This document shows, piece after piece, positions 12,909 to 61,464 of a DNA stretch of 64,000 nt (the first letter of the stretch is position 1; each line of letters starts with the position of its first letter). Below the pieces are notes generated by a model. That model saw nothing but the letters and a program-made list of their open reading frames with translations. It was not told the DNA's origin and did no database searches. A program made the position numbers and the translations under genes. This DNA comes from Paraspadella gotoi (taxonomy: Eukaryota > Animalia > Chaetognatha), in assembly GCA_051294375.1 (NCBI GenBank), contig CM119266.1:11881180-11945179 (forward strand). Reading direction: 5' to 3'.

Positions 12909-12909
12909 G

Positions 12910-12958
<49 letters not shown>

Positions 12959-16035: not shown

Positions 16036-16530
16036 ATCTAAAGGTAAATCCTCCTGTCAAAGAAACCCTCCTCCCCTCGAGCCAAAGAAATATCGTCGAC
16101 GCGTAACGCTCTCCTCGGAGCCGTAATCTCTCCGTCGAAACCAGGGGGCGCCAACGAAGTCGCGGCCGCTAACTGTGCCGTCAGGTGGCGAAAGATGGCA
16201 ACAGATGGCGTCGATTGACGGGAAATGGCGACGACGATATGATGACACGATTGTTACACGACGAGGACGATGGCGGCTTTCGTTGAGTTCGTCCCGCATT
16301 TATGAAGACGATCTGACAAAAACGACAATGACGATAAACCACGACGACGAAGGCGACGACAGCGAAGACGATAATAACACTACGACAACGACGACAACGA
16401 CGACCAAAGCGAATCTCACGTCGCGACTCTTGACGTTTGACCGAAAAGGTCGACGTTTTCGTCAGGACGCGAGATTTCGCTGTCGAGGATGCATATTTCC
16501 GGTTCCTCTCTCTCTCTCCTCTCTCTCTCT

Positions 16531-16570
<40 letters not shown>

Positions 16571-19500
16571 TCTCTCCTCTCTCTCTCTCTCTTTTTTCTC
16601 TTGTCTTTTCTCTCTTTCCTACCACCTTCATTTTTTCCTCCAGTCCCAATTCTCATTCTTAAGAATCTAAATTCATCTCCACCACTCCCTCCCACTCCTC
16701 AGCTAAAGATTTTTTCGTCACCCTAGGGTCAATTCCTCAATCCTTTATTCTCCCCCGTTCGCGTTTTTCCATCCACCCATTTGGACTCCCAAGTCCGCGT
16801 TCGAATCCGCGGGACGCGCCGGCGTTATTCTCGTCGCCTTCGAAAACGCGAGTCGACACTTTTCTCCGTTTTAGATCTCCTGGCCGAGTCGTCGTTGTGT
16901 TGTTGTCTTGTTGTTATCGGTAGGAGTCCGTCTTTAGTTATTTTGGGAAAAAGTCCTTTCCTGCTTCTCGGATGCTTGGACAACGCGAGTCGAGGGACTC
17001 AACATAAGAGGAAGGAAAAAAAAGGCAACACATGACGAGTTCTTTCTTTTCACAACTTTTTTTTTGTTTTCTCAATATGTTTTCCCCGTTTTGTTTTTTT
17101 TTTCGTGTTTATTCATGTTTTCTCTTCTTTTTCTTCCTCCTCTTATCCACTTTCCTTTCCTCCCTTATCCATCAACTTCTTCTCGCGTTTCTCATTTTCT
17201 TTTTTACTCTTCGCCGACAGGTGGTTCCATTTCTTTAGAGATGGGCAAGATGACTGCGTCCTCTGATTCGAGAGTTCGGTGGACTCCCTGTGAGTCATTG
17301 CCTGCTAACACTACGTCGTCACTTGCCCCTAGAGATTTTCCGTGCGTAGACTGGATCTTTTCCATGACCGAGTACTGCGCCCTCTCCGGTAGCTTGATCC
17401 GAATCCGTCAAGGAACATGGTTTTGTCTTTGGAAACATACCTGGTCCAGCACAGATCAAGGGGAAGTATTATATAGAACTATCATCGAAGGAGTCAAATA
17501 TTACGCTCTGTATATCGGACTCACTTTAGGTTACCCGTACCCTGGGGCGCCTGGGTCTGGCGCTCCAGATACCATTCAAGTCCAGAAGGGTCGCATTCCA
17601 CTGGCGCCAAGCGTTGGGTCATCCCGCAACCCAGTGCCCCGAAGGCACGGTCCGTACGGATGTACTTATATCTACAAGCTATGAAGAAGAGATGTGAACG
17701 TGCGTTGTGAAGCGGGATTCATTTCATCTCATCTCTCTTCGCTTGGCGCCCTCGCGATCATTGCTTTTCCAAATACTCTCGTTTGCCCGATCTTAATACC
17801 TTACTTTGTTTTTTTCACAACATATTGTATCTGTCAAGATCTTTATAAGTTTGGTTCCCCGCTGTGTTGTTTCCGCCTTGTTTCGTAAATCAAATTCCAC
17901 CAGTTTTCTTTTAAATATCTCCGTTTCCCTGTTGTTCCTCGGATATCCAATGCCGTCTCCTACTCATTATTTTCTCTCCTTTTACCCCTCTCCGCAATTG
18001 TTCCCGTCGTAATTTAAGACTTCCGAGTCTTTCACCAATCGCCCACATCGAGAGAATTTACCAAGTCGGATATTACTCTCTCTTCCACTTCGAAAGTATC
18101 GGAAATCCGATTCCATTCGGCCACGCCCACCGAAACGTCGTGATGACCCGTTCGCCCGAGGAGAAAAAGGAGGGAATCTATTCATTAATTATTCTTCTTT
18201 TTATCGTTTTCTGTCTAAATAGCGGGAATTTCTGTTTTTCCGCTCGCGGCTGTGACTCGCTTTTGCTCTCACTCTNNNNNNNNNNNNNNNNNNNNNNNNN
18301 NNNNNNNNNNNNNNNNNNNNNNNNNNNNNNNNNNNNNNNNNNNNNNNNNNNNNNNNNNNNNNNNNNNNNNNNNNNNNNNNNNNNNNNNNNNNNNNNNNNN
18401 NNNNNNNNNNNNNNNNNNNNNNNNNNNNNNNNNNNNNNNNNNNNNNNNNNNNNNNNNNNNNNNNNNNNNNNNNNNNNNNNNNNNNNNNNNNNNNNNNNNN
18501 NNNNNNNNNNNNNNNNNNNNNNNNNNNNNNNNNNNNNNNNNNNNNNNNNNNNNNNNNNNNNNNNNNNNNNNNNNNNNNNNNNNNNNNNNNNNNNNNNNNN
18601 NNNNNNNNNNNNNNNNNNNNNNNNNNNNNNNNNNNNNNNNNNNNNNNNNNNNNNNNNNNNNNNNNNNNNNNNNNNNNNNNNNNNNNNNNNNNNNNNNNNN
18701 NNNNNNNNNNNNNNNNNNNNNNNNNNNNNNNNNNNNNNNNNNNNNNNNNNNNNNNNNNNNNNNNNNNNNNNNNNNNNNNNNNNNNNNNNNNNNNNNNNNN
18801 NNNNNNNNNNNNNNNNNNNNNNNNNNNNNNGTACGGCCTACGATAAACGGAAGCGCCTCACATTTCCGCCGACAATAATCTCCTCCGGTTTTGTGGCCTG
18901 AGTTCTTCCCGTTCTCCTACCCGTTCTCTCACCGAATCTCCTTCCGGTTCTCCCAGTTCTCCCCGTATCGAGAGGACGACCTTTATAGCGGAGTCGCTCA
19001 GTTCGTCTGTACTGCGGTCGTTTTGCCGAATTTCCAAGAGTCACTTATCGACGATGGAAAGATGGACGGATGGACGGATGGATTCTGCCTCTTTGATGGA
19101 ATCCGCTTCGTTTTCTTTTCCTTTTCTCGTAACCTTTGCACCTTCTACTGAATGTACTCTTTGACAAAATTACTTTCTTCATTATTGTAATCATCCGCTC
19201 CTTCATTCTCTCTCTTTTTTATAGTTATATAGTAATTGTTATAGTTATAGTTTTAAAGAGAAAGCGTTAGATTGTTGAATAAAATTGAAACAATTGAAGT
19301 AATTTCAAATTTGTAATTTGCAAGAGCGCACTTTAATTTACTCCATTAAGTTATATTCAAATGTTTTTTATTTCGTCATTCCCACCGAGAAGTTTCTTTT
19401 TCTTTTTAATCTTCTTCTTCCTTGCCCCTTAACCGACCTTACCTCTCTTATTCTCTCTTTTCACATCGAGATATAAACTTAAAAAGCAAATATTCCCAAA

Positions 19501-19710
19501 TCGTCCATCGCGCAATAAACTCCCCTTCGTGCGCCTCGCCCACCTCAAATCCCGCAAGTCGTTTTCCGTCTCGTTTGGCGAAACTTACCTTTTCTTCGCC
19601 TCGTTCGAATCCCCGGCGTCGATTTTACCTTTTTATAGTTCATATGCGCTGCCAGGTCGGGCCGACCTCGACGGGGTTTCGTCTAGGCCTGTCTCGGTTC
19701 CCCGTCTTCC

Positions 19711-19798
<88 letters not shown>

Positions 19799-21050
19799 TT
19801 CTCATCTTACCTAGAGACCGGCGCCAAACGTCTCACTCCATCACGATCACCCCGAGCTTGAAATGCAACTCGACTCATTCCTTTCTCGCCGGGACACACC
19901 GCGTCTTAAACTCACTCGAACGTGAACCCTTGGCAGAAATTGATTCGTCTTCATCCCTGGGTCCACCTCCATCGACCCTAGCAATGACCCTATTCGCCTC
20001 TTATCCATCAGAATGTCCTCTCTATCCATCAAAATCCCTCAACGTCATTTCCGCAAATCCAGCCTTCTCCCTTTTTATTCATTACTCATAACCTTTAAAG
20101 CCTTAAGTCGTTCTCTCTCACGACTCATACCTCCGGGGGCAGTTTTTCTCCAATGGAAGTTTTCACTAACTCATGAAATTGGTACAACCAATATAAGAAT
20201 TATCCATTCGTTTAATAAATAAGCTATTTTGCCCCTGACTTTGGACAAGCTTTGGTGGTTTAAGGCCTCTTTCACTCTTACAAGATATTATTTTTTTTTC
20301 TCGAACAGTTCCTCAAAATACTGTTCATTTATTGTTTGTATTAGTAGATATATATTTTCTGTATATTTTGTCGCTTATTTCTTTTTTAATACGTTCCTAT
20401 TTCCTAACATTCTTACGACCTTTCATAATTTCTCAGTTCTTTCATATTATTTTTTCTACCTTCGCACCTTTTTTATTTTCTTTTTTCCTTTTCAATTTGA
20501 CTTCAGATGTCAGCGTCGGTCGTCTCTTTCCTCACTTAATCCCCCAGCACAACTTACCCCTGAGACAACCAACCCCCCACTCCCCGACCCTTCCCCCTCA
20601 ATGACCATCGGGATCCAATTTCACGCGGCATCGCCTCTTCTCCGACGACGTCGTTCGTCGTTCGTCTTTCTCCTTTCCGAAAGATGTCGGTTTTCGAGAA
20701 GCTTCGCCCGGGTTTTAGACAAAAGACAAACGGCCGAACACGTTGTTTACAAGGCAGCGATGGAGAGGAGAAAGAGAGGGAGAGAGCCTTGTTTAAACAT
20801 ATTATAGGAGGATAAAATATAAGAAGAATGATATTACGTATAAAATTATTAAATTTCTTGTTTACCATAATGTATCAAAATTTGTATGATAATTATGAAA
20901 GTTCACGATCCTATCGCCTCCACCGTCGACTCGTATGAAAACAAATCTAGAAATGTTAAAAGAGTAATGTGCATAATAACGCGAAATGAAAAAAAAAATG
21001 TGCGAGCAATATTGCGCAGTGGATGTTGGTAATAACGCCAGAGAGAGGGG

Positions 21051-21108
<58 letters not shown>

Positions 21109-21120
21109 AGTGAGTGAGAG

Positions 21121-21480
21121 TAAAACAAGAACGGTAATTCCAATGTGTTGCGCCGCAGTGACTTTATTTTTATGATCACATGATATGACATGACATGACT
21201 AAAAAACTTTTTTTGCCTGTGTATTTATGACATGCACTGCATCAAAATTCTGTCTTTCATTCTTTATAGTTTTAGGAATTCCTGAAGGCTGTGCGAGCAG
21301 TCCCTTAGATTTGAGGTTTTTTCTATCTTAACAAATGAGCAACCAACTATAGACAAATTGTATGCATTTTTAACTTAAGTGGGAAAGACCGACGGACAGA
21401 CATACCGACGGACCGACAAACCGACAGAAAAGTGACTTATAGAGTTTCTCCGCGAGTACTCGCGGCGGAACTAAAAAAAA
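21121..21480 (-). mobile_element. Helentron/DINE-like short element, family 2 (copy inside the large duplication)
   Basis: Near-identical to 14248-14603. Confidence 0.6.
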
Positions 21481-21580
21481 TACAGAAAAGGGGGTTAATG
21501 GGAAGGAATGGAACCGATAAGAAATCGAGAAAAGGGCAAGAGTGGGGTGGGGGGTCCAGTCGTTCTCGCTCGGTATCGAG

Positions 21581-22042
21581 GCCCTGTAATATTTTCCATC
21601 ATCCACCCTACTAAGCTCTAATAGTGTAGTTGTTCTGGCTCGGTAGCAAGGCCCTGTGATATTTTCGGTCATCCACTCTATTAAGCTCTTATAGTGAAGT
21701 CGTTCTGGCTTGGTAGCAAAGCCCTGTGATATTTTCCATCATGCACCCTACTAAGCTCTTATAGTGTAGTTGTTCTGGCTTGGTAGCGAGACCCTGTGAT
21801 ATTTTCCATCATCCACCCTACTAAGCTCTAATAGTGTAGTTGTTCCAGCTTGGTAGGAAGGCCCTGTGATATTTGCCATCATCCACCCTACTAAGCTCTT
21901 ATAGTGTAGTTGTTCTGACTTGGTAGCGAGGCCCTTTTATTTTTTACTGTCATCCTCCCCACTAAGCTCATATAGTGTAGTCGTTCTGCCTTGGTAGAGA
22001 GCCTTGTGATATTTTCCGTCATCCACCCTACTAAGCTCTTAT
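21581..22042 (+). repeat. ~70-bp minisatellite (duplicate copy)
   Basis: Same unit as 14705-15165, inside copy 2 of the large duplication. Confidence 0.95.
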
Positions 22043-23368
22043 CGTGGGGTGGCGATTGGGGGTAGAAGAGAAAGGGGGAAAGAGAGACGATTGTGTTTAT
22101 AGGATTACAAAAAAAAAAAGAAAAGGAAAAAGACGTTGGAAGTTGATACTCGGAAGTGGGAAGAAGAAGGAAAAAAAAACTCGTTTTTTATTTCCTTTTT
22201 TATTCGACTTTAGTGGAAATTACATCATTGATTTTCCGTCGAAAAAAATCGTCGGCGCCATCTTTTGAATAGGGGGACGACGACGATGAGAACGATGACG
22301 ACGATAACGACGCCTGCTGCGTGAAGCTAATGATTTCCTTTTGAATGTAAGTAATTTAAGACCACTCAAGTCTCGTGAAGCTAAAGAAATACAAAAAGAA
22401 TTATATTCAGACGGTAAAAATTTATTTATACACAAGAAGTAAGAGCAGGAGAATCTTGATCTCAATTCGGTTGTAAACTTTGACTAAAAGTAAAACGCTC
22501 AAATTACGATGAGAAAGACGACGACGACGACGACGACGACGCAGACGAGAACGACGATATTGACGACGAAGGAAACCACGAAACAACAACGACGACTTCG
22601 ACGAAAACGACGGCGAAGACGACGACGACGAAACGACGACGATTACAAAGTCGCAGATGACAAAGGTGATATGAACGACGACGACAACAAATAACACGAC
22701 GAAAATGATGACGACGTCGATGACAAAAACCAAGATACGACGACGACGACGAAGCAACGACAACTCTACAAAGTCGCAGCTGACAAAGGTGATGTAAACG
22801 TCAACGACAACAAATAACACGACAAAAATGACGACGACTACGACAAAAAATCAAGAAACAACGACGACGACGACGAAACAACGACGATGACGACGTCGAA
22901 TCTAAAGGTAAATCCTCCTGTCAAAGAAACCCTCTCCCCTCGAGCCAAAGAAATATCGTCGACGCGTAACGCTCTCCTCGGAGCCGTAAATCTCTCCGTC
23001 GAAACCAGGTGGCGCCAACGAAGTCGCGGCCGCGTAACTGTGCCGTCAGGTGGCGAAAGATGGCAACAGATGGCGTCGATTGACGGGAATGGCGACGACG
23101 ATGATGACGACGATTGTTACACGACGAGGACGATGGCGGCTTTCGTTGAGTTCGTCCCGCATTTTATGAAGACGATCTTGACAAAAACGACAATGACGAT
23201 AACCACGACGACGAAGGCGACGACAGCGAAGACGATAATAACGACGACAACGACGACAACGACGACCAAGAGCGAATCTCACGTCGCGACTCTTGACGTT
23301 TGACCGAAAAGGTCGACGTTTTCGTCCAGACGCGAGATTTCGCTGTCGAGGATGCATATTTCCGGTTC

Positions 23369-23452
<84 letters not shown>

Positions 23453-24739
23453 TTTTTCTCTTGTCTTTTTCTCTCTTCCTATCCACCTTCATTTTTTCCC
23501 AGTCCCAATTCTCATCTTAGAAATCTAAAATTTCATCTCCACCCCCCTCCCACTCCTCGCTAAAATTTTCGTCACCCTCAGGGTCAATTCTCAATCTTTA
23601 TTCTCCCCCGTCGCGTTTTTCCATCCACCATTGTGACTCCCAAGGTCGCGCGTTCGAATCCCGGGACGCGCGCGTTTATTCTCGCGCCTTCGAAAACGCG
23701 AGGTCGCAACTTTTCTCCGTTTTAGATCTCCCTGGCCGAGTCGTCGTTGTTGTTGTTGTCGTTGTTGTTATCGTAGGAGTCCGTCTTAGTTATTTTGGGA
23801 AAAAGTCTTTCCTCTTCTCGATGCTTGCAACGCGAGTCGAGGGACTCAACATAAGAGGAAGGGAAAAAAAGGCAACCATGACTGATTGTTTTCTTTTCCT
23901 TTTACAACTTTTTTTTTGTTTTCTCAATATGTTTTCCCCGTTTTTTTTTTGTGGTTTATTCATGTTTTTCTCTTCTTTTTCTTTCCTCCCTTTCCGACTT
24001 TCCTTTCCTCCCTTCATCCATCAAGACTTCTTCTCGCGTTTCTCATTTTCTTTTTTACTCTTCGCCGACAAGGTGGTTTCCATTTCTTTTTTTCTTCTCC
24101 TCTTCATTCCTCCTTTCTCCCTCTACTTCTTCGTCCTCCCCAAATTTCCCCTCCCTCTCCCTCTCCCCCAACCTCCTTGGTCCAGCCAACAAAAAAAAAG
24201 TCAAAGCCTTTACGATCCCCACTTAGACCGGGGCGTCGCGCCAAAAATCGCGTCATCCCCTTTCTTCCGTTTTTTCGATGCCCAACGCGTCGTCGTTCGT
24301 AACTCCCCCGCGGTCTCCGAGGCTCCCTAAGCCTGTTACGCGACTGGGTTCGCAGCCGAGAATCCCGCGCCGCCCCTGCGGGGTCGAGAGGGGGTCAAGC
24401 CCTTGTGTCTCCCCCGTTCCCCCCCCCCAGCTCTGGCGGCGACGAGCGGAATAAGAATCGCGACCGGGGAAAACGATTTTGGGTCGGAGGCGATGAAACG
24501 AATTCTCCACAGATTTGGCCACACCGAGGTGTGGGTTGTCCACACTGACCTGACTCGTTTAAATACTCGGCCTTTACAGTATCAATTTGATCCAATTATT
24601 TTTTTTTTAGACTGGAACATTTTTCGCGTAGCCATGGTTAGTGGTTATCTTTATAANNNNNNNNNNNNNNNNNNNNNNNNNATTGTATTATAAAATTTCT
24701 AAACCAATATACTAGGATAACAATCTTTATTCCTCCTCC

Positions 24740-32339: not shown

Positions 32340-33859
32340 TTTCGGGGCCTTCTGTGCTGCACCATCATGAGACCCTTCCTCCCTCTCGTAATTTCCGCAA
32401 GTCAGGTTAAGATCCCTGACAATCGCAAGCGTCATGACCCCAAATAAACCGAGCGATGGTAGATTTTGGGTAAACCCCCTTTTCATACTGTCAACGCGAA
32501 ACAGAATCGAGTTTTTTGTCGTCGCCTAGTCTTGGCCCATCTGCATCGTAACAATCGGGTGAATTATGGTGGAGAAAGCTGTTTGAGGAAAGAAATAAAG
32601 AGAGAGAGAGAAAGACAAGAGAGAGAGAGAGAGCAGAGAGAGAGAGAGAGAGATGAGAGAAGAGAAGAGAGAGAGCAGAGAAGAGGAGAGAGACGAGATT
32701 GACGAGAGAGAGAATGAGTTCCGACTCGGTGTCATATAATTCTTTATACCATCTCCTGAGAGAGAGAAAGAGAGAGTCGAGCCCGAGACACGGTGTCATT
32801 AAATCAATCGACTGTTGCCCCTCATCCCGTCTCCACGCAGAGTCGGTGGAGAATGAGCCGGCCGCGAGGACGTTTGTTATCCCTGGCGATCATGAGAACC
32901 TCGAATGAATCAATCACCTCCCTGAGAAAGACGGCCTTCTTTCTCTCCTGGTCTCTCGCTGACACTAATGCTCGAGAGAGCGTCTGGAAAGTTTTCAGAT
33001 CGAATGAAACAATTAATTGCGAACATATGCGGCGAAATGGGTCGACGTCAAGTGAGAAAGTCTATTTCTGAGAAAATCACTTCTCGTCCAAGAGATTTAG
33101 GTGAGNNNNNNNNNNNNNNNNNNNNNNNNNATCGATAAACGAACTTTGATATGTGGATCGCATTTAAATGAGAACCATGATTATAGATAATATATTATTT
33201 TCGTAATCTCACCTTAATTAGTAGATGTTTAAATTAGTTTAATCCCTGTTAAAACTTCTGTTTCAATTATCTTTTTCTTCAAATTTATTTTCTGAGGAAG
33301 AAGACTTATATCGCAACGGTAATGTTTATTGAGGAAAAGTCCCTGGCCGGAATAGTATTAGAAAAGAAGGAAGTTAGTAGAACTCGAGAACCGCGGAGAG
33401 TGGACTAAAAAGGAACGGATCATCGGGAGAGGGAGGGGAAGAGGAGGATGAGGATCGAGATTTTATTTTTATTTTTTTAATTTTCCTTTTGGCCGCTAAA
33501 AATTCCAAAGAACCTTTTTCCTCGCGGAGATTTCTTCGTTTTGCGACGACGGGAGATTTTTAATGCCTTTTCTCGTAAGAGATAAAAAGAGGAGAAGAGG
33601 AAAAATGAGGAAGAAGAAGAATAAAGAAAGGAAAAGAAAAGAAAAGAAAAAAAGGAGGAAGAAGACAGATTAAGAAACGAAAGGTAGGGAGGAAGACAGG
33701 AGGCGGGAAAGAGATTTAAATATTGCCGGAATTAATAACTCTCTCTCTCTCTCTCCTCTCTCCTCTCTCTCTCTCTTCTCTCAGCTCTCTCCTCACGGCA
33801 AACGATTATAGGGTGGGATTAAAGAAGATCTCGATCGACGCTAGCATAGAGATAGGACG

Positions 33860-34838
33860 GAAGAAAGGAGGGAAAGGGTGAAAGGGAGGAAGAGGAAGAA
33901 AGATAAGAAGAGACGAGTTAACACTAATTCTCCCTTCAGACTCCTACATAGGAAGAAGAAGTGAGGAAAGAAGTGGAAGGGGAGGAAGAAAGAAGAAAGC
34001 AGAAGTAAAGAAGACGTAACACGAGTTCCCTAGTCCAATAGAGAAGAAAGGGAGGAAGAAGGTGGAAAGGGAGTAAGAAGAAGAAAGAGAAAATTACAGA
34101 CGTTAACACAATTACTCCCTCAGACTCCAGATAGAAGAGGAAAGGAGGAAAGAAGGTGAAAGGAGGATAGAGGAAGAAGGAAAAGAAGACGTACCGACTC
34201 TCCTCAGCTCCAGCTAGAAGAAGAAAGAGAAAAGAAGTTTGAAAGGGGAAGGAGAAGAAATAAGGAAGTAAGAAGACGGTAACACGAATTCACCCTCAGA
34301 CTTCCAGTAGTGAAAGAGAAGTGGAGGAAAAGAAGGTAGAAGGAGAAGAGGAAGAAGAGAGAAGAGACGTAACGAATCTCCCTCAGGACTCCAGATAGGA
34401 AGAAGACAAGGAGGAAGAAGGTGAAAGGGAGGAAGAGGAAGAAGAGAAGAAAAGAAGACCGGTAACACGAATCTCCCTCAGACTCCAGCATAGGAAGAAG
34501 CAGAGGAAGAGTGAAAGGAGGAAAGGAGAAAGAGAGAAAGAACATAACACGAATCTCCTCAGACTCCAGTAAAAGAGCAAGTTGAGACAGAAGGAAAGGC
34601 GAAGGAAGGAGAAGAGAGAAAGACACGTAATCACGAATCTCATCAGACTCCAGATAGGAGAAGAAAGGAGGAAAGAAGCGTGAAGGAGAAGAGACGAGAG
34701 AAAGAAGAGCGGGTAACAGCATCTCCCGTCGAGACTCCAGATAGGTAGAAAGAAAAGGAGGAGAAGAAGTGGAAAGGGAGGAAGAGGACAGAAAGAAGAA
34801 GAAGACCTGAGTTAACACGAATCCCCTCAGACTCCAGA
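33860..34838 (+). repeat. ~90-bp purine-rich minisatellite, 11 units
   Basis: Core TAACACGAATCTCCCTCAGACTCCAGATA recurs at ~33919, 34017, 34104, 34192, 34280, 34370, 34463, 34545, 34628, 34714 and 34813, separated by homologous GAA/GGA-rich segments. Confidence 0.9.
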
Positions 34839-35451
34839 TTTCTTCCGCTTCGTCCCCTGCTCTGATCGATCTGTCGGGGTCCTGTGACGTCTACGTCCAC
34901 TCGCGATTTTGTGTTTTCTGTCTGTCGTTTGTTGTCGCTGCTTCTCCTCGTCTCTGCTCTCTCTCCTCTCTCTCTCTCTCTTCTCTCGTCTCTGGTCTCT
35001 CTCTCTCTCTCTCTTCACAGAAGGCCATTTTTCTCCTCAGTCTTTCCGCATTGTTTTTTAATTGCCTCTCACTGTCCGGCGGCGCAGGCGCCGAGCGTGC
35101 TAATTTGTCTTCTGCCAGCTGCGCGCTCGTCGGAAACTTCGTCTTTGTTTTTTTACATCTTCTTCTCGTCGTCGTCGTCGTCGTCGTCGTCTGCGTCTCT
35201 CATATAACATTGTTATGGCCTCTCTCCATAATCCATTTTATCATCTTTGTCAATTTTTTCATTTAAATTACCATCGCTGATTCTTAGTGAGTACTCTCTC
35301 TCACTCATCAGACCCGTAATATCACAAAATTATTAAACAGTTACATGAATCATTGTAATTAATATTCATTCTCCGGGTCATATTTCGCAAGCCGTTTTTA
35401 AACTCCGTTTTAATCCTAAACATTATACCATATATACGTCATTATTATAGC

Positions 35452-38224: not shown

Positions 38225-38350
38225 CATTTAAGGAAATATTTCAGGGGTGAAATCAATTGAGGTTATATTTCTGAGAATAAAGGTGACGGTGAGACTCACG
38301 CAGAGTCTTGATCAATTCTACTGAAACTAAAACAAGCTAGGTCTATTTAT

Positions 38351-38774
38351 ATGAAATTGTACAACCAATATAAAAATTATCCATTCATTTAATAAATAAG
38401 CTATCTTGCCCCTGACTTTGGACAGGCTTTGGTGGTTTAAGGCCTCCATCACTCTTACAAGATAATGACATAGCAGGTCCCTGCAAGCTTTCAATCAAGA
38501 CTCTCTCACAGTCTCGTTTATTCACTCCCAGAGTACCTGGCTTCCCTATCAATGAAGTGGTATATATTTCAAAGAATGTTTCAATTGTATGAAAAGACCA
38601 CTCCCTTAAGTATTAGATTGGGGAATACTTATTGTACTCCGCACTAACATCAAAATACAAGGAGCTGAATTTTATGAAATTGGTACAACCAATATAAAAA
38701 TTATCCATTCATTTAATAAATAGCTATCTTGCCCCTGACTTTGGACAGGCTTTGGTGGTTTAAGGCCTCCATCA
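38351..38774 (+). repeat. Two direct copies (38351-38464, 38674-38774) of a ~115-bp dispersed repeat also at 13315-13431 and 20173-20287
   Basis: Shared sequence ATGAAATTGGTACAACCAATATAA..TTATCCATTC..GCTAT.TTGCCCCTGACTTTGGACA.GCTTTGGTGGTTTAAGGCCTC. Confidence 0.9.
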
Positions 38775-39090: not shown

Positions 39091-40038
39091 AAACAGTTTG
39101 AGATATGGAGTAAAGAGAGATCAAAGTTCGAAAGAAAATCACAAGGATGAGATTAGAAGCTCAAGGGGAAAAAAAAGAGTCTAAAAGGAAAAGAAAAACC
39201 CAGGGATCAGGTTATGACGACCGCGACGAATCTCGATGGTTTATGTTACAGTAGAGCGTTCGAAAAACAGGAAAATATTGTCATATTTTAAATTTTCTCG
39301 GTTTCCTTTCGACCCTTAAAAAATTAAATGTTCTTTTCTTTCTCGGGTTTGTAACTCACTACTTAGCGGCTTTAATATATTTTTTGGCTGATTCTGGTTT
39401 AGTTTATTTATTTATGTATTTATATGTACATTCCCTTTTTATTTATTACATTTTTTTCTTATTAAGCAAATATGCATCTAAGATTCTCCAAGAATACTGG
39501 TCACACTAACCGTCTTCCTTTCATTCAACTTCATTTGTTGCTTTCGTCTCGCCACATCCCCCCTCAATCCCCACCCACCCCCCCAACTCCCTAAACGCCC
39601 TCCCTCGCTCCACGCCCTTCGTCTCCGTTCAGCCCTCTATCGGCCTCAAAAGGAAACTCGCGGCGACAAAGACGAGAGGGGGCGAAGTCTGCGGAAAAGA
39701 GAGGATTCCCTCTCGAGGGGGATTTTCTCTTTTTAATTTTTTTTCCCTCGTCTCGTCTCTCTTTCTATTTTCTCGCCTCTCTCCAGAGTTCTGCCTTCTC
39801 TAACGGACTAACTAGCTTTTTTTCTAACAGAAAAAAAAACGAGATTTTCTTTTTAGGCACTGTTTTTATTAATTAAACATAAAAAAAGTAAAAAAAGAGA
39901 TACGAAAAAAGCAAAGAAACGGTAAAGAAAAGATAATCTTTAAGATTTTCCTGAGATCTTAGGTTTCCCATCCAAAAAATGGGGAAAAAAAAGAATCGCT
40001 AAAAATAAATTCAAAAAAAGGGGAGTCTTAAAAGTATT

Positions 40039-40502
40039 TTATAGATTGAGAAAAGAACTGGATTCTTTGTACAAACCGACGAAGCGCTTGAAAAGTTTTC
40101 CCGCAAACACGAGTTTGAAAAGAGATTCGTCTGGAAATTCCTTCATCTTCCTCCCATCGTCCTGGATATTCCCCTTGTAGTACATGACGAGCATGTAGAC
40201 GCTTTCCCTCGGCACGCCCATCTTCTCCGCGCACTTGAGCTTGAGATCGAGGATGGTGTCCGACGAAGTCATGGAGAAAGTCAGGTGGAGCCCGGTCTGC
40301 GTGTCCACGTGGAAGTCTCCCTGGCGCACTGGAAATAAAAGATCTTGTTTATTCATCGATTAAAATAAAGAAGGAAAATCTATTAGACATTAGCTTAGGA
40401 TCGGTAGACAGTATTTAACTTACAGTGTTGCTGGTTTTTCTTAGCCTCTGTAAAGTAGAAAAGGACCAGGAATATGACCGTCAATTTTTCAGTGCCTCTC
40501 AT
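40039..40502 (-). CDS. Signal peptide + ubiquitin-like domain protein, paralog B (2 exons, ~122 aa)
   Basis: Exon 1 40502-40424 (MRGTEKLTVIFLVLFYFTEAKKNQQH), donor GTAAGT, 95-nt intron ending TTCCAG, exon 2 40328-40039. The phase-1 join is in frame: LRQGDFHVDTQTGLHLTFSMTSSDTILDLKLKCAEKMGVPRESVYMLVMYYKGNIQDDGRKMKEFPDESLFKLVFAGKLFKRFVGLYKESSSFLNL*. Same intron position and phase as paralog A. Ubiquitin-like motifs include SDTI..K.K...GVP and DGR. AATAAA on the minus strand at ~39870-39865. Confidence 0.88.
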
Positions 40503-41460
40503 CGTACTTTCGATGATGTTTAATTAAAAGATTCAATAAAAATTTAAAAAAAGTCGAATTTGGAGGTGATTTCAATTAATTATTGTAAGGTAGCTTGCAT
40601 TTTTAACATTAAAAAGAAACTTTATTTGTTTATCGATCAATCTTGACGCTTTGACAAATTCAGCAGTTTACTTATTTCTTTAAGAGTGATAAAATATTAT
40701 GTCAATTAAGACACTCGGCTGAATTTAAAAATTTGAGTGGAACCAAAGAGAAAATAAAACGAACGCAGATTTGTTTTAAAAATTGGGCGTGGAAAATGAC
40801 CGTTTTATGTGGATTATTTTTAAACGCTTAGATCGATTGATTTGAAATGTTGTATCAACAATATTGACATCATTTCCTATCAGTAAATGTAAAAATATTT
40901 AAAATAACATTATATACAGCCAGGTAACTTGCCTATCTACTTTATAAAAATATCGCGCTCAGCGTGGCTTCAAGCGTGGCGACGCCGAGCGTAACATCGT
41001 CACGAGGGATTCCACGTGGTGCGTCATTCGATCACGCCCACGCTTACTTTATCGCTTCAAAAATTATACGGCGCCATTTGTTTGTTTTTTTTGAGGGGGT
41101 GGGCCGATAACTAACAAATTGGCGCCCACTAGTGGTCAGCGGTGATGTTCAAGTTACTCTTCATCTCCCTTATCTCCTATAACTCATTTAGGTAATTTGC
41201 GTTGCCACTTACAAAGAGCAACGCGACAATAAATATAAAACAATCTCCCAATAAAAATATATTTTATTTAATTAATGGATGCAATGTGCGTTTCCAGCGT
41301 CTATTTACAACAAGGTATTGTTCTGAGCATAATCGATGGGAGGAAAAGGGGTGGAGGAGGAAGAAGAAGAAAAGCTGATATGAATTCAGGATAACCAATA
41401 ACTGAATAAGGTTCAATAAAGAAATTTCTGTCAAAATCACACAAAAATCTTTGTCTCAAA

Positions 41461-41905
41461 TCAGTTCATATGCTTCTTAGAAAATACGAGTTTGAAAAGA
41501 GCTTGGTCTGGAAATTCCGCCATTTTCTTTTCGTTCTTCATCTTCTCTCCGCCGTAGAAGATCGAGAAATGATCGATCTCCGCGCTTGGCACGCCCATCG
41601 CGTCCGCGCATTTCCGCTTGAGATCGAGGATCGATTCCGACGAAGACATTGACACTTTTAAGTGGAGACCAGTCTCCGTGTCGACGTTGACGGTCATCGT
41701 GCGCACTGAAGACAGTAAATTAAATGATTTTTATGTTTAACATAGGGATTTTATTTTAAATAATTCAAGATACAATCATTATCATCTTATACTCACTCGG
41801 TGGACGATTTTTGGTCGCCTTGACGCAAGAGAAAAGCAGCAGAAATCGGGCCGTCAATATCCGGATTCGACGAGTCAACTGTCTTCTGATGTTATTTCGT
41901 AACAT
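41461..41905 (-). CDS. Signal-peptide-like leader + ubiquitin-like domain protein, paralog A (2 exons, ~117 aa)
   Basis: Exon 1 41905-41797 (ATG, MLRNNIRRQLTRRIRILTARFLLLFSCVKATKNRPP), donor GTGAGT, 91-nt intron ending TTCAG, exon 2 41705-41461. The phase-1 join is in frame: MRTMTVNVDTETGLHLKVSMSSSESILDLKRKCADAMGVPSAEIDHFSIFYGGEKMKNEKKMAEFPDQALFKLVFSKKHMN*. Exon 2 aligns by eye with ubiquitin (VKTLTG / SDTIENVKAKI / GIP / LIFAGK / LHLVL) but has no terminal GG. AATAAA on the minus strand at ~41268-41263. Confidence 0.85.
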
Positions 41906-42109
41906 TATGGCTTTTATGCTTTCATTATTTTGGTGGGTTTTTTGTTTGTTTTTTTTTATACTGTTTTTCTTCAGTTTTTATAGTTCTTATTGCTAAAGAC
42001 GATTTTTTCGTCTGCATGAATGAGAATGCGAATTTTACTAAGCCTATTTTTCTAGTACTATTTCATTCTTTTCTCTCTTTTCCTAAACTTTTCTATTTTT
42101 CCCTTTCAT

Positions 42110-42411
42110 TTTTAGTTACGACGCGAGTACTCGCGGAACAACTCTATAAATCTATAAGTCTATTAGTCACTCTTCAGTCAGTATATCGGTCGGTCGGTCC
42201 GTCGGTTTGTCCCACTTACGTTAAAAATGCATATAATTTGCCTATATTTGATGATTGCTCATTAGTTAAGACAGAAAAAACCTAAAATCTAAATGTCAGC
42301 TAGCGCATGTCATGTCATGTAGCGTCATGTCATGTAATGTCATGTCGCGAAAAATACTCGTGATAAGTCAGTCACTGCGTCGCAACACATTCGAATTACC
42401 GTTCCTGTTTT
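42110..42411 (+). mobile_element. Helentron/DINE-like short element, family 2
   Basis: TTTTAGTT start, perfect palindrome CGCGAGTACTCGCG (42122-42135), (CGGT)n microsatellite and (CATGT)n tract. Homologous in reverse orientation to 14248-14603 and 21121-21480. Confidence 0.65.
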
Positions 42412-45400
42412 CTTAGCTTTACTTATCTCACTTGACTTATCCTCCTTCTTCCTTTCTTTTTCTTCTCGTTTTCCGCCTTTCCCGGACTTTATTCGGGTGT
42501 TTCCCACCTTTCTACATCCCTCTTTTATTTCCCCCTGAAAAAACGTATCCGATTTCGTCACGTGACTCGATTTCGACTCGATGAAGTCACATGACCTCAG
42601 ATTCCTCAGAACTCCTCGATGGCTTTTCCTCTCTAAGCGTCTTCGCCTCTAGGATTTCGCCGAGATTTTCTTCCCCGCGCGCGTGCGAATTGCGCGTAAA
42701 TTCGAGTGCGTGCGACAGTGAGAGCTCGTGCGACCTCGATAGTTTTGTCGAGTAGCCGAGGCGAGATTAAAGAATTAAAGAATCTGGCGCCGGTTAAACG
42801 TTGGGCGTCGCCGTCGGCTTGGAGTCGTGAGGATTTTCATTAAAGAAGGTGAAACGAAGCGAAGGGACGGACGGACAGACGGAAAGCTTTGAATCAGTCT
42901 GTTTACTCAGTTCAAGTTTAAAAGGGAATCGTGACGACGAATTTTTCCTCGCTGTCTGTTTCGGAACAAAACAAAAACAAAACGCAGTTGTTTTTTTTTC
43001 CGTGTACTTATTTTTCGTCGTCTGATCGAGGAGACGAGAGAACCGGTTTCGAAATGGTTTCTCAGTTTTAATTGTTGTCAGAACTCATTCGGATTAAGAT
43101 TGTTTTCGGTCGGTTAGGACTAAGCTCTGACGAAAAAAGCCATAAGTTTTTTTAATATATTCTTTTACCGGCCAATGTAGAATGATGGCAATATTGCTAT
43201 TGTTAAGTTTAAAACAAAATTCGATCAGAAATATAGAAAATATTAACCAAAATCTTCGGAAAATCCACCCTTCTTTGAAAGATTTTCGCCATAGAAGATT
43301 TTTCCCGAATCTGACTCCCGGTTGAAAACTCTTAGAATTCCGATCGTTAGCTTTTACTTTAATTAAAAATTTCACCAAAATGGACTAATTCACTTTACCA
43401 TGATTGTATCATATTAAAATAACTAAATAAAATGTAAAGAAAAATTTTGAGAGCCCTTCAGACATATGGCTATCGGATTCCTGAATTCGAAGTTTATTGT
43501 AAAATCACAACATATGTTAAATGCGTTGACATTGTATTGAAGTTGAGAAATCCCTTTAATTTATATATATAAAAATATAATTTATATATTTATAATTTAT
43601 ATATATAAAAATCTCGTTGAAAATATTTTTCCGAGCGAACCAGTCCATTTGAATCTGATGGTTTGATGTCAAAATGATGCTTATTTGTCAAGAGAAAAAA
43701 AATGCGAGCCCTTCAGATACAACAGGGTCTGAATCGAGTGTTTTTACATCTATTTTTTACCTTAATTTTTCCAAGGGGCGTTTACATTGTTTGGTAGTCA
43801 GATTTTAGCAAAAATCTCCATTGAAAAAGTCTTCCTCGATTTCTAAGAACGACGTAGACTCCTAGGTTGGTTAAGGTTTTTTCGGATAGGTTTTTAGTGC
43901 ATAGAAAACTATTAAGTTAATAATTTTTAAATCAAAATATTCATTAATAAAATCTCAAATTTGGTTTTTGTACCATTCCGAAAAAAAGGGAAATTTTCCG
44001 CTAACAAAAGGGAAAAAGCTACGACATTAGAAATTCTACGACTTTTTTTTTAATCTTTTTTTCTGAAAATAAAACGGTTTATTGCCTGCAGGAAACAGTT
44101 AAAACAACAGAATTCAGTTGAAAAAAAAAGAAGCAAAAGTTGATAAGACAGCGCGCCGATCCGATTACGAAAACGATGAATAAACGAAAAAAACAATTCT
44201 GGGAATTAAGCTTCGAAAAAAAATTTCCGAGAAAAATGGAAATCTGATTGATCGATTGATGCTTTTATCAAGATTTCCACATTTCCTCATCAACAAAGTA
44301 GCTTTATCATAACTGACGTCATTTAAACATAAATATCATTCTATGTATATATATATTTTTAGTCGTAACGCGGAACGAACCTTAAAGCACCCATTCCCTG
44401 GCCAATTTTCGACGCTCGGTATGCATGCTATTCTCCCACTTGGGTCGGAGGCCGAGTCATTCCGGCGCCGCTGCCGCTGCCGCCGCGGACTCCGCTGCCG
44501 CAGCTGCCGACGTCGCCAACGGCGTCGCCTCTCTGAATGCTAAATGCCCTCGGCGCCCTCGCGCTCGGAAATTTCCGTTTTTTTTTTTTCTCCTGTCGCT
44601 CATGGAAAATGGATGTTTGCTTGGTTCTGCTTGTCCATCGGCTCCGATAAAGTGTGCAAATGTTTACTCGCGTTTCCAAGCGATTGAATCCGGCGTTTAA
44701 GAGTCGTACGTCGGCCGGCCGCCGACTTTCGATGAGTCGTGCCGAGTGGGAATTGGGGGGAACTCGAGGGATCGAGAGTTACAATCGGAGAGTTAACAGT
44801 GTAGCAGTGATTCTTTGATTAAAGATCCTAATTATATCTGCAATATAAGAATAATAAAAAGCACAAATAATCGAAAAATGGCGCTTTAAAAAAACTGGGA
44901 CAAAGATATAATTAAAGCGACGAGGCTCTGAGGCTCTCCAAACCAAGACGATGGATTTACTGCATGAGTTAGAATTTTTATTGCAGAGGCTTAAAAGAAT
45001 TTTAAAAAAGTTCTTTAGTCGCGCACTTATTTCCACCAAAATTACATATAGTGTGATATCGTTTTATTTTCGTAAAGTCAACAACCTTTTACAAATTCTC
45101 CTCTTTACCATCCGTGATTCCATTCACCCCTGTCACAAGCGAGAGAAGAGTGAGTTGACGACGGATCTTTAAAGAATCGTCTCACGTCTAAGAACGAAAG
45201 CAGCTTATCGTTATTCTCTCGTTCTTCCCTCGTTCTTCCCTCGTTCTCCTTTTGAACAGTAATCTCCTCATCGTGCGTTCATTTTCATTTATTTACATTC
45301 GTCGGGACTCAAAAGAAAACGAGTCTGTCGAACGAGCTATCGGGCGGTCGGGCGGTCGGGCGGTCGGGCTGGTGAGACGGGCGGCTCCCAAGCGGAGACG

Positions 45401-48305: not shown

Positions 48306-50762
48306 AGAGGGAGAGGGAGAGGGAGAGTTGGTGAAATGCGAAAGTGGCTGGACTGTGAACGAAAAAAATGCGAATGTGATAGGAAGGGAAGAAAAAAAAT
48401 AGGAATAAAGAGCGAGTGACTGCGAACATGAGAGAAACGATATGAGCCAGAGTCAATTCTCTTCAGTTCCATTCTTTTGTTTTCAAAAGAAAAAAAAAAG
48501 ATTGCCCTCCCGCAAATATTCCCAGAACGAAACCATAAAAAAGATATTAATGCCGTTCCATCCTTGAAGCCAATAAAAGTCTGGAACGAACAAATTGGAA
48601 CAATTCATTCTGCAATGGATGTCGAAAGCCGAGAAGAAAAAATAAAGCGCTCTTCAAAATTCGAGTCAGATTCGATTTCTGATAAAATTGTAAAACCCGC
48701 GTAGGGAGTGGGGGCCACTGGAGGGGGGGGAGTAAATCATGACGAGAATTCAGTTGAATAAATTAAAATCAACGGTGATGACAGTTAAAGCGTTGTCAGG
48801 GGGAAAAAAAAGAGAGCCGAAAAAAGGGAGCATGTCTTTCAATGAAACGATCATAAAACATTATTTAATAAAATTCAAATAAAAACCGCAAAGAAAAGTT
48901 TGCCTAAAAAAAAAAATTATTCCTCTGGAAACTCATATCCTGGTTCCACCCGCTGTTGGCGAATAAATTTTGCGCGGGAATATCGTCGTTTTCCTTCGCG
49001 CGGATCTCATTGTTCAGACAACGAGGCGCTGCCGCTCAGTTCGCCATCCACCACCCAAAGACTCCGCGGCCGCTAACTCCCTAATCCCCACGCCCCAAAC
49101 GTTCCCCGCCACTTTCTCTCGAACTGTTATTGGTAAAAAGAAGCTCATGGTGAAGACGCAAATCAAACCGCTGGCCGCTGGCTGGTCCGTTTTACAAGCA
49201 AAGTTATGATCATAGAAAAAAAGCACACTACCAATTGTTGGCCATGATTCAAAGTATATAATACTAAAATCTGATTGGGCTAGCTTCATTGCTTTCAAAG
49301 AGAGATCATTTGGAAGATTTTCCACTTCTGACCCATATATCTCAAAAAGTTGACGACTAGAAAAAATTTTGAATGGTGCATCTTGTAGCCCAGGAAAAGG
49401 CGAATTAATGACCATCGTGACAAAACTTTCAATTTCTCAAATTTTATCGTAATGTTTTTTTAAATCGATGGGTCCGTCTCCTGAGTATTAAGAAGTTTGG
49501 GGCAACAATGTTTATGACAGGATTCTCTAATTTCAATTGTCACTATCTTCAAACGTTTGTCCTGATTTCAATGATAACTTAAAACCCGTTACCACCCAAA
49601 GCTATACCCCCGCTACCAAAGCTAGCACCACCGCCACCCAAGCCATCAAAACAACCCCCTCACCCCGCCCCCCTAAACCGCAACTGCCACCCATCACTTT
49701 CCCATGCGACTTCGAGGCAAAGAAAACTGGATGCTCGAATCATAATCGCCTACATATGATTCCTAACGGGAGCCCATCTCATTTTTTTTTCTCTCTCTCT
49801 TTTCCCAAAAACTCGGGAAGTCGTTTTCTTATTTTTTTTTCTTACATTTTTTTCACGTTTTATGTTGTTATGATTGTTGAACTTAAATATATTTCGTCTT
49901 ATTTTTTATCATTATAGTATTAGTATGATAGAACCAAAATTCTTTTAAAAGTTTGTTTGAGTCCGCTTGTTTTAAACTGTTTTATAATTTATTATTTTTA
50001 ATTTTTTTTAAATAATTTTTGAATTCTTCCGCTTGACTTTTATACACCTTTTTAATTCGACTCTTAACTTTCGTGTCTCGACGCGACACTTTGACGAAAA
50101 TCTCACCTTCGCCGCCGCTGGGGTCGCCCTGGGTCGTTGCCGACACCAACGCCGGCGACGAAAAACTGCTGCGGTTTCCGCAGCGGCTGCAGCGGAAATT
50201 CCTCGTATCTGGACGAATTAAAACTTCTCCAAATTTGAAGTTCGAAGACCTCCCCTTGCCTCACCCGTGTTCTTACATTGCCTCACCTTTTCGAAGTTCA
50301 ATCTTGATCCAGTTTTGACATGTAGAGAGATCTTGTTTTTTCAACCGGAAGCGGAGTGGCGATTTTTGAGAAAAGAAACGAAATGAAACTCTGGCTGAGT
50401 CAGTGCTTAATTTTTTGTTCTTTCGGCCAGCCCTTAGAAGAAAGTGCCACGAAAGATCCGGCGCTCCCGAATTACTAACTCGAAATTAAAATAAAGATAG
50501 AAAAACAAAATAATCTGCGATCATGTTTGGTAATTCAATGCCGATGAGTCATTATTTATTTTTCCCCTTTTAAATGAACCTCATTCTCAAATTCGGTTTA
50601 AAGGGGGGGGGCGGGATGGAATGAAAAAAAAAGGAGAAAGGAAAAAAAAAGGGAAATCTTTCTCTGCTTCGTCACGGATCAGAATCAAGTTTCTTTTAGC
50701 AGCTTTGTTCTTTTCTTTGTCTTCGACGGTTAACTTTTAGACAGAGGATGTGAAGAGGTTGC

Positions 50763-59646: not shown

Positions 59647-59814
59647 ACCGACAGACCCGCGCTCTCAATCAATTTCCCTCATAATTATCCCGTCGTCGTA
59701 ATTTAATTTCTAGACTGCGAGTCGCGGCGAAGGTTTTGAGCTGTAGCCCAGTTTAGTTTTGTTCTCTTGTTCTCTGGGATTCTTTTTTTTCTCTCTTTTT
59801 CACGGTAACTATTA

Positions 59815-60235
59815 CGATGACGATAATCAACATGATGATGAACGATGATATTCAAGGAGATGATATAATCAAGATGACTATCACAATGACGATGATAATC
59901 AAGATGACGATCGATGATATTCAAGGAGATGATATAATCAAGATGACTCTCACAATGACGATGATAATCAAGATGATGAACGATGATATTCAAGGAGATG
60001 ATATAATCTAGATGACTATCACAATGACGATGATAATCAAGATGACGATCGATGATATTAAAGGAGATGATATAATCAAGATGACTATCACAATGACGAT
60101 AATAATCAAAATGACGATCGATGATATTCAAGGAGATGATATAATCAAGATTACTATCACATTGACGATGATAATCAAGATGACGAACGATGATATTCGA
60201 GGAGATGATATAATCAAGATGACTATCACGATGAC
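59815..60235 (+). repeat. 69-bp minisatellite, 6 units
   Basis: TTCAAGGAGATGATATAATC recurs (with single-base variants) at 59851, 59920, 59989, 60058, 60127 and 60196, an exact 69-nt period. Confidence 0.95.
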
Positions 60236-61464
60236 TATAGCAATTACCATGATTATTACGATAGCTATCACGATGACAATCACGCTGACAATCTCGAAAA
60301 CGTTGTCATCAACAGATTCGCACAACTTTTAAACTCGCTTTTTTAAATAATTCTCCTTTTTTCACACAACAATTGTTTACAGAAAATCTATTCTTTTTTT
60401 TTCTTTCTTTTTTCTTTTTTTTTCGAAAATTTTTACTTTTGTCGACAAACGTATTTTCTTTTTTAATCTTTAACTTTGACTTTGAAAAAATAAATAGAAA
60501 TTTTTCTTCTTAAAAATAACAAACGTTTTCCTCGAACTCATCGTTAAAAAAGTTTGAAATATTTTTATTTTCGTCCCGCGAAAAATCGTGACGAAATAAT
60601 ATAGGAAAATTCTTTTTTTTAGTTAAATTTCATAATTTTTTTTTCTTTTCTTCTGTTTTGATTCTCGAGTCAAGACATTTTCCTTTTCTAGTTTCGGTGA
60701 AAGTTAATCGGGATCAAAACATCGAGGAAAGCAGCTTGATCCGAATAACCGGGATTCTTCCGATTCATTTTCTAATAAAATTCGTTACATCTTCAATTCC
60801 TTTTGTTCCGAACATAAAAAAAAAGAAATCAGTAAGATTTCGACTATAAATTATAACAACCGCGCATTATGGAATTTCTCTATTGCTCCTTTTCATTCGA
60901 AAATTTTTATTCTTAAAAATCGCCTTGTTTCCGCCTCTTTTTTTTAAACTTTTTTAATTTCAATTGAAATTCAGTTAAAATGACACTCTCCGAATCTAAA
61001 AGATAAATAAGAATTTATTTTCTGCGAATAATTTCGAAGCCATAAATTAGGCTCAATGGGCCCAAGAGGCCAATAGCACCCATAAAACAAGTGTTCAGAG
61101 GCCAATGAAACTTAAGGGCATGAGCAGTAACGACTTCATATTTCCCAGCGAAACAACATTTCGTTAATGATTCGAAGAGGAATAAAAAAAAATCACCGCA
61201 ATTAATTCGATCGTCGGGGAAAAATCCCGACAGAAGTAAGTAAGTAAGTAAGTATGAATTCATAGGTCATGGCTTTGATGTTTTGTTTTTCTTCTTCTTC
61301 TTTTTTGTTTTTTTTTTTTTTATTTTTTCTTAACTTTTTTTAACTTTCTTTCGGAGCTATGTCACCTTGAAGACCTAGAATTTTAGCGAACAGAACTCAT
61401 TCAAACAAAGATCGTGTGGTAAACAAATAAAAGAAAAATATTTTTCTCCTCTCTCTCTCTCTCC

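Follow-up and report, generated by a model that had tools for sequence, protein, structure and literature searches.

Tandem spliced genes for diverged ubiquitin-family proteins without a Gly-Gly end and with leaders, at least one of them of predicted export function, in the chaetognath Paraspadella gotoi

The DNA analyzed here (in the following, the window) is a stretch of 64,000 nucleotides from contig CM119266.1 of Paraspadella gotoi. It harbors two neighboring minus-strand genes, herein named A and B, that encode small ubiquitin-family proteins preceded by a leader. According to the reconstruction of the spliced genes, gene A extends from an ATG at 41905 to 41461 and encodes 117 residues, and gene B extends from an ATG at 40502 to 40039 and encodes 122 residues. 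An earlier note on this DNA, made from its letters alone, had described the two as paralogs of identical architecture without the LRGG terminus of ubiquitin. Both statements hold. Each gene consists of a leader exon, a phase-1 GT–AG intron of 91 nt (A) or 95 nt (B), and an exon for the ubiquitin-family domain, and neither protein has Gly-Gly after the last strand. The second exons of A and B take ranks 1 and 2 among 1084 frames of the window on a coding-likeness score.

The coding part of exon 1 of gene A (41797..41905, minus strand) comprises 109 nt, i.e., 36 codons and one nucleotide. It encodes an Arg-rich N terminus, a hydrophobic stretch interrupted by Arg, and a candidate V-x-A cleavage site at residues 28–30. 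The intron (41706..41796) is followed by exon 2 (41461..41705), in which the domain is closed by a very short C-terminal end and a TGA stop. Upstream of gene A, two TATAAAA motifs on the minus strand (41954..41982, with starts at 41982 and 41960) are candidate TATA boxes by motif only. The coding part of exon 1 of gene B (40424..40502, minus strand) comprises 79 nt, i.e., 26 codons and one nucleotide, with a predicted signal peptide at residues 1–20. It is followed by the intron (40329..40423) and by exon 2 (40039..40328), which encodes the domain and an 18-residue basic amphipathic tail with a Lys-Arg pair and ends with a TAA stop. A candidate poly(A) signal AATAAA of gene B lies at 39865..39870 on the minus strand; it is assigned by motif only, and the transcript contig described below stops at 39974, short of it. 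The 5′ leader of the B transcript (40503..40615, minus strand) contains an in-frame stop and an upstream open reading frame. The latter is out of frame, has nine codons and two ATGs (40609 and 40600; positions 40580–40609), and lies at the 5′ edge of the contig; it could damp translation of B if it is inside the mature mRNA.

Transcription and splicing were assessed with X1, the sole public sequencing run that contains the stretch (0.47 of sampled words). It stems from one study, and its RNA status was guessed by a tool. Its contigs were placed on positions 39200–43000 and give neither strand nor expression level. One contig per gene skips the intron at precisely the bases that the earlier note had named for a junction check: in gene B, 95 nt are skipped at 40328/40424 and the shorter flank has 192 letters; in gene A, the skip is 91 nt at 41705/41797 and the shorter flank has 133 letters. 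On the plus strand, both skipped segments have CT..AC ends. The B contig covers exon 2 and the coding part of exon 1 in full, and the A contig covers 41487–41705 and 41797–41929. Depth bins that contain introns hold only the share of their exon parts, as calculated from the depth table (220.6 = 608.9 × 46/127). Since the exon parts explain the depth of these bins, X1 behaves like spliced RNA. Transcription and splicing are shown for both genes. The contig depths of 608.9 for gene B and 10.6 for gene A are unsuited to ranking expression.

The earlier note had considered that further coding exons upstream would make the hydrophobic segment internal. For gene B this does not apply: the contig is colinear over 40424–40615 and includes an in-frame stop eight codons upstream of the ATG, and thus the B leader is N-terminal in this isoform. 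For gene A the matter stands differently. The contig aligns as far as 41929, the genomic frame stays open without Met to 41977, and the first 64 letters of the contig, adjoining a skipped repeat, are unplaced. Because of the open frame and these letters, a further upstream exon of gene A is possible, despite the TATAAAA motifs at 41982 and 41960.

Ubiquitin, one of the most highly conserved proteins of eukaryotes, has its place of action in the cytosol and the nucleus. The exon-2 products match the Pfam family PF00240 over model positions 1–57 of 72 with 25.5 bits (A) and 29.5 bits (B) at a cut-off of 25.4 bits. The ubiquitin-family assignment was thereby confirmed, barely so for A, for which a scan of the entire stop-to-stop frame gives 25.1 bits. 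PF00240 was the only family found in the Pfam scan of A and B, with no Hub1- or MUB-type family. Compared with PDB sequences, B matches ubiquitin residues 4–60, and for both proteins the sequence homology to ubiquitin is demonstrated only up to residue ∼59–60. The identity to ubiquitin is ∼30%, with 13–15 identities in the first 39 residues as the best region. All strands of ubiquitin, including strand 1, are located in exon 2. Since the whole domain is contained therein, the leader is an addition to it.

The fold was modeled for B only. The AlphaFold model from the single sequence has a predicted local distance difference test (pLDDT) score of 54, comprises only the first hairpin and the helix, and has no Foldseek match at E ≤ 0.001. 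A second AlphaFold model was based on a 40-row alignment consisting of B, A, and 38 of the 150 listed matches of polyubiquitin type. Herein, the pLDDT is 84 overall, 92–97 for exon-2 residues 1–70, and below 50 for residues 80–95. This model aligns with ubiquitin in Foldseek with an E value of 1.3e-7 and a root-mean-square deviation (rmsd) of 1.8 over 79 columns. In VIA-align, a ubiquitin variant scores Z 13.0 against it (rmsd 1.5, 77 aligned), on a par with SUMO2 and numerous further ubiquitin-like proteins (UBLs). The complete β-grasp including the last central strand is, therefore, formed in the model with the ubiquitin-rich alignment and absent from the single-sequence model. The ESM Atlas yielded only generic ubiquitin-like clusters, among them the neighbors of A, or unnamed ones (0.88–0.93).

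In ubiquitin, the surfaces around L8, I44, and K48 and the RGG tail are those read by E1, deubiquitinases, and ubiquitin receptors. These are remodeled in A and B: L8 is replaced by Glu/Gln, I44 by Phe/Tyr, K48 by Glu/Asn, and K63 by Asp. K6 and K11 are replaced as well, and V70, K27, and K29 are kept. In the alignment to the ubiquitin unit, the Arg-Leu-Arg-Gly-Gly end is missing from both proteins. A and B, thus, lack the set of features of a conjugatable type I UBL (Gly-Gly; the L8/I44/V70 patch and K48/K63). Judged by sequence, the replaced recognition surfaces and the loss of Gly-Gly exclude conjugation of A and B to other proteins and make ubiquitin mimicry unlikely.

The segment after the end of the homology resembles a different part of ubiquitin than its position would suggest. 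It scores higher against ubiquitin 38–50 than against the last strand (33 versus 15 for B, 26 versus 11 for A), and shuffled sequences attained those scores against whole ubiquitin in 5 of 5000 cases for B and 29 of 5000 for A. None of 235 nonredundant ubiquitin units from the phmmer matches described below shows this preference (best score 18); the units were chosen for an end-to-end match to ubiquitin, which makes the control lenient. The 38–50 pattern was spotted before testing, and A and B are not independent. In the alignment used for modeling, the columns of the last strand of B held residues of ubiquitin strand 3, and the model still placed them as the final strand. An internal repeat at the DNA level is borderline only (128/3000 and 113/3000 shuffles), and the rest of the B tail is not significant as ubiquitin 49–76 (431/5000 shuffles). 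The comparison is suggestive of a last strand that is a second copy of ubiquitin 38–50. The conjugation end may have been lost in a single event, either through a tandem repeat or through a deletion spanning a polyubiquitin junction. A possible loss of a B-like tail from A would have left no trace in the DNA 3′ of the A stop, which matches B no better than shuffles do (1509/3000). If the repeat is true, strand replacement by an internal repeat would allow the fold to be kept as conjugation is lost.

The layout of the leaders was judged by our own rule, which combines hydropathy (Kyte–Doolittle, 11-residue core) with the −3/−1 positions; 552 ATG-started open frames of the window served as background. 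In the B leader, a short basic n-region precedes a hydrophobic core of 11 residues with a mean of 2.79, and T-x-A is found at residues 18–20. Only 21 of the 552 frames are as hydrophobic, and seven, B among them, show the full signal-peptide layout. In B, no 19-residue window exceeds 0.92, and the hydrophobic segment is thus too short for a membrane anchor. The A leader has V-x-A at residues 28–30, a core that is broken by Arg (11-residue mean 1.92), and a 15-residue Arg-rich N terminus. The signal-peptide layout that had been ascribed to both leaders, hence, applies to B by the hydropathy and −3/−1 rule and is weak in A. A transmembrane anchor was ruled out, as no 19-residue hydrophobic window lies above 1.15, and so was a false signal peptide of the Crinkler (CRN) type, as the leader lies outside the domain. 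Between the predicted cleavage site and the domain there are 6–7 residues. The predicted mature proteins have 87 residues and a pI of 9.1 (A) and 102 residues and a pI of 9.2 (B), with one Cys and no glycosylation sequon; neither protein has a KDEL-type ending. From these properties we infer export, with a good case for B and a weak one for A, whose leader may be retargeted or decaying.

The exon-2 products of A and B are 52% identical over 77 residues. Over the 77 codons of exon 2, dN is 0.39 and dS is 0.73, resulting in a dN/dS of 0.53 with a bootstrap interval of 0.26–1.01. The GC content at third codon positions (GC3) is high in both copies (0.68 and 0.78). This shared bias probably depresses dS, and the ratio may therefore understate the constraint. 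Second codon positions are better conserved than third ones (0.77 versus 0.57). The last 26 codons of exon 1 align between the paralogs without gaps at 55% DNA identity (z 6.1, 0/300 shuffles; dN 0.51, dS 1.79). The intron (z 1.9, 18/300 shuffles) and the untranslated regions (UTRs; z −0.8 and −0.3), in contrast, show no alignment between the paralogs beyond shuffles. As the leader aligns whereas the intron and the UTRs do not, coding constraint acts on the leader. What aligns between the two leaders is the hydrophobic core together with the small residues at the cleavage positions. The leaders are accordingly conserved between the paralogs, as the earlier note had it, but they are not equivalent, with Arg in the hydrophobic stretch and the Arg-rich N terminus of 15 residues found in A. 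An assembly duplicate was ruled out by the protein identity of 52%, the dS of ∼0.73, and the unalignable UTRs, so that the pair are genuine paralogs as proposed. Selection on them, which the earlier note had also suggested, is borne out by the exon-2 dN/dS of 0.53 but is loose, given its interval.

Relatives were sought by several routes. A word-seeded search with B gave no candidate, and a search with the alignment of A and B gave four, none of them at E ≤ 0.1. With phmmer, 609 matches at E ≤ 0.001 were found among 1.84 billion representatives. The best 150 of these 609 all have 3–12 matched stretches with 27–36% identity, the lowest at 57 bits; the 84.7 bits between A and B come from BLAST, a different program from phmmer, and are a rough yardstick only. 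In metagenome contigs, none of 597 pattern matches was confirmed, and a degenerate motif had no match. Two of 92 viral contigs passed tblastn (L001 and L002, with the same coordinates and identity). The match in L001 was rejected as a chance match, consisting of a short motif that opens an unrelated ORF of 228 residues. A third paralog was not found within the window. Judged by these protein, metagenome, and viral searches, which yielded no close relative, the pair is lineage-restricted, in agreement with the earlier proposal of a lineage-specific family; the word family is backed by two paralogs but by no third member in the window. Among the matches listed from open-licence full texts, no signal-peptide–bearing, glycine-less, divergent ubiquitin-like protein of an animal was found. 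Two of the papers (PMC4435813 and PMC4378268) concern secreted ubiquitin hydrolases and were set aside as not relevant.

The theme of a signal peptide joined to ubiquitin has precedents in BfUbb, the cyst-nematode ubiquitin extension proteins (UBCEPs), and PUBL, and A and B are a highly diverged eukaryotic form of it. BfUbb of Bacteroides fragilis shares 63% identity with human ubiquitin, carries a signal sequence and a C-terminal Cys, and lacks the terminal glycines (PMC3352274). The protein acts as a secreted intraspecies toxin (PMC5705921), and its reported target is a periplasmic PPIase (PMC11467351). A and B resemble BfUbb in a predicted signal-sequence layout (B by the hydropathy rule, A weakly) and in a single, nonconjugated ubiquitin domain without terminal glycines. 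In contrast to BfUbb, they are eukaryotic with spliceosomal introns, are only ∼30% identical to ubiquitin, have L8 and I44 replaced, and lack a terminal Cys; their export is predicted only. By sequence architecture, A and B are closest to BfUbb, yet they fail a defining feature of each family compared here. For GrUBCEP12, processing needs the Gly-Gly site. The cyst-nematode proteins Hs-UBI1 and GrUBCEP12 are secreted, and GrUBCEP12 gives rise to free ubiquitin and CEP12 (PMC5632807, PMC4802876). Like the cyst-nematode UBCEPs (Hs-UBI1, GrUBCEP12, 4G06), A and B, with predicted export, are eukaryotic and built from ubiquitin, B with a short C-terminal extension. Unlike them, they have no Gly-Gly and a domain far from ubiquitin (13–15/39) and, hence, no releasable near-canonical ubiquitin, and the extension is found in B only.

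PUBL of the Toxoplasma gondii apicoplast keeps and needs its di-glycine (PMC5487736). It shares with A and B a ubiquitin-derived domain with an N-terminal extension toward the endomembrane route, predicted in the present case. However, PUBL has a long recessed leader, the di-glycine, and a plastid role, whereas A and B lack Gly-Gly and have 6–7 residues between predicted cleavage site and domain. In CRN proteins, strand 1 of the Ubl is what is predicted as a signal peptide (PMC5289972). A and B are similar to the CRN Ubl header in having a predicted ubiquitin-like fold in a eukaryotic protein of predicted secretion. They differ in that the leader sits in a separate exon before a complete Ubl and in that a stop follows within 3–18 residues, with no toxin domain thereafter. 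UBL5/Hub1, the Ubl of TINCR, and the MUBs are small β-grasp proteins that work without Gly-Gly conjugation, are intracellular, and are not known to have a signal peptide. Superposed on the alignment-based model of B, Hub1 gives Z 12.4 (rmsd 1.4, 72 aligned) and TINCR gives Z 12.2 (rmsd 1.7, 72 aligned); unlike these intracellular proteins and the MUBs, A and B carry an N-terminal leader. Antimicrobial activity is described for peptides derived from ubiquitin and for an oyster ubiquitin that lacks the glycines (PMC10892293). In these sources, the eukaryotic precedents routed by a signal peptide (UBCEPs, PUBL) keep the di-glycine or release near-intact ubiquitin, and the glycine-less secreted form is described for Bacteroides. 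If the present reading is true, the same co-option would have arisen natively in a eukaryote, with a spliced gene pair exporting a rebuilt, nonconjugatable ubiquitin fold. Its significance is limited by the precedents, by there being only two genes, by the doubtful status of A, and by secretion being deduced.

The explanation that we favor, at slightly better than even chances, is that B is translocated into the endoplasmic reticulum (ER), loses its leader by cleavage after Ala20, and leaves the cell as a free basic β-grasp protein that binds a target noncovalently, plausibly in defense or host manipulation, with A as a drifting sister copy. As B has no Gly-Gly end for conjugation, it would act by noncovalent binding. 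In such a course of events, a ubiquitin-derived exon would have come behind a signal-peptide exon, and the C-terminal end would likely have been replaced by the repeat of ubiquitin 38–50 that now forms the last strand. Mature B, with ∼100 residues, would be exported after cleavage, the β-grasp providing a stable scaffold with a remodeled surface. Its role would most plausibly lie in conflict (antimicrobial defense, or action on a host if the animal is a parasite), comparable to BfUbb in bacteria. Rapid evolution of the pair and the lack of close relatives in the searches above speak for this explanation, as do the basic pI of the predicted mature protein and the missing KDEL-type ending. The leader of A would have drifted, and A may be poorly exported or retargeted. 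A farther-reaching version holds that an animal lineage built secreted conflict proteins from ubiquitin by gaining a signal-peptide exon, with the 38–50 repeat replacing the last strand and deleting the tail in one step, and that the copies have since parted, B taking the secretory route and A going to mitochondria, as a eukaryotic counterpart of BfUbb; as a whole we regard it as quite unlikely. Several points weigh against the favored explanation. The export of B is predicted from the layout rule only, and a conflict role of B is one that we infer by analogy. The A leader is weak, its hydropathy being reached by 71 of the 552 background frames. The single-sequence model of B has no β-grasp, and the 38 polyubiquitin-type rows bias the confident one. 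The expression evidence consists of one run of one study with an RNA status guessed by a tool, 64 letters of the A contig are unplaced next to a skipped repeat, and the interval of the exon-2 dN/dS reaches 1.0.

A further point against it is the composition of A, whose first 36 residues contain 8 Arg, 2 Lys, and no Asp/Glu, with a helical hydrophobic moment of 1.96 over residues 5–15. An Arg-rich, acid-free, amphipathic make-up of this kind resembles mitochondrial presequences. The leaders might, thus, target an organelle or a membrane and not the outside, with A directed to mitochondria, B to the ER lumen, the lysosome, or a membrane, and the domain serving as a nonconjugated adaptor. Organelle-targeted ubiquitin-like proteins do exist, with PUBL as an example (PMC5487736). 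We consider this unlikely, since the B leader is classical in layout and includes two acidic residues among its first 20, a 19-residue hydrophobic segment and a KDEL-type ending are missing from both proteins, and the leader parts aligned between the paralogs are the core and the cleavage positions. The tail of B allows another reading, in which B is a carrier-plus-peptide precursor like the cyst-nematode proteins and a secretory convertase cuts at Lys-Arg to free an active peptide of 14 residues. The Lys-Arg pair is at B residues 107–108, directly after the folded domain, the tail shows amphipathic character (moment 1.75) and little order in the model (pLDDT < 50, exon-2 residues 80–95), and GrUBCEP12 is processed to ubiquitin and a 12-residue peptide (PMC5632807). 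Against this, the tail is absent from A, both basic proteins contain several dibasic pairs anyway (four in mature A, three in mature B), and two sequences are too few to gauge conservation of the tail, which leaves the precursor improbable. Delivery of A and B into host cells as decoys that jam E1, deubiquitinases, or ubiquitin receptors, a role that the earlier note had entertained, would fit the ubiquitin ancestry and the export leader, the binding of BfUbb to human E1 in vitro (PMC3352274), and the secretion of ubiquitin extension proteins by cyst nematodes (PMC5632807, PMC4802876). It is nevertheless very improbable: only 13–15 of the first 39 residues match ubiquitin, the L8, I44, and K48 replacements and the absent Arg-Leu-Arg-Gly-Gly end remove the surfaces read by ubiquitin-binding proteins, the C-terminal Cys of BfUbb is missing, and there is no evidence of a parasitic lifestyle of the source organism. 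The effector role that the earlier note had also listed is unsupported. The pair could also be transcribed, near-functionless derivatives of polyubiquitin with a leader that is hydrophobic by chance, drifting to loss. For this speak a dN/dS of at least 1 in 2.6% of 2000 bootstraps, the broken core of A and its end 15 codons before that of B, and the lack of relatives elsewhere. Nonetheless, the reading frames of both genes and their four splice sites have been preserved at a dS of ∼0.73 with introns and UTRs no longer alignable, second codon positions are kept better than third ones, and the two second exons rank first and second for coding-likeness; decay of this kind has, therefore, a low probability.

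The window around the two genes is repeat-rich and gene-poor, and its observed/expected CpG ratio of 1.25 indicates no depletion. Abundant GA/TC microsatellites and eight N gaps are present. The genetic code in use is the standard one. Of the 1084 frames, 145 were scanned against Pfam, and no family was above the cut-off in them; the window contains no tRNA and no Rfam family at the gathering score. An interspersed repeat at 42109–42292, ∼200 bp upstream of gene A, is 75–76% identical to 21305–21477 and 14432–14603, and many different X1 contigs align with it at a summed depth of up to 1828. Another repeat is located between genes A and B (40700–40913), where an X1 contig of 920 nt aligns with 13 mismatches and three gaps and continues elsewhere. 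Downstream of gene B, two copies of a ∼105-bp element lie 323 bp apart (38347–38451 and 38670–38774). Two further copies are at 13315–13431 and 20173–20287, and the four share 92–97% identity. A direct duplication with a period of ∼7 kb and 92.5–93.5% identity pairs 12877–17236 with 19718–24089 and 11821–12767 with 18831–19808, flanking the N gap at 18276–18830. It represents either a segmental duplication of recent date or the tandem assembly of two haplotypes. Self-BLAST offsets revealed minisatellite arrays at 14683–15164 (∼69–70 bp), 21558–22046 (∼70 bp), 33850–34839 (∼90–96 bp), and 59800–60252 (∼69 bp). On the minus strand, 10350–10553 is bordered by AG and GT and is a candidate for an internal coding exon, with no Pfam match or homologue; we take its Cys spacing to recall a C-type lectin domain, which the Pfam and homologue searches did not confirm. 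A 140-codon open frame lies at 49017–49436 on the minus strand, the middle of which presumably recalls a decayed APE endonuclease of a non-LTR (long terminal repeat) retrotransposon, unconfirmed by Pfam.

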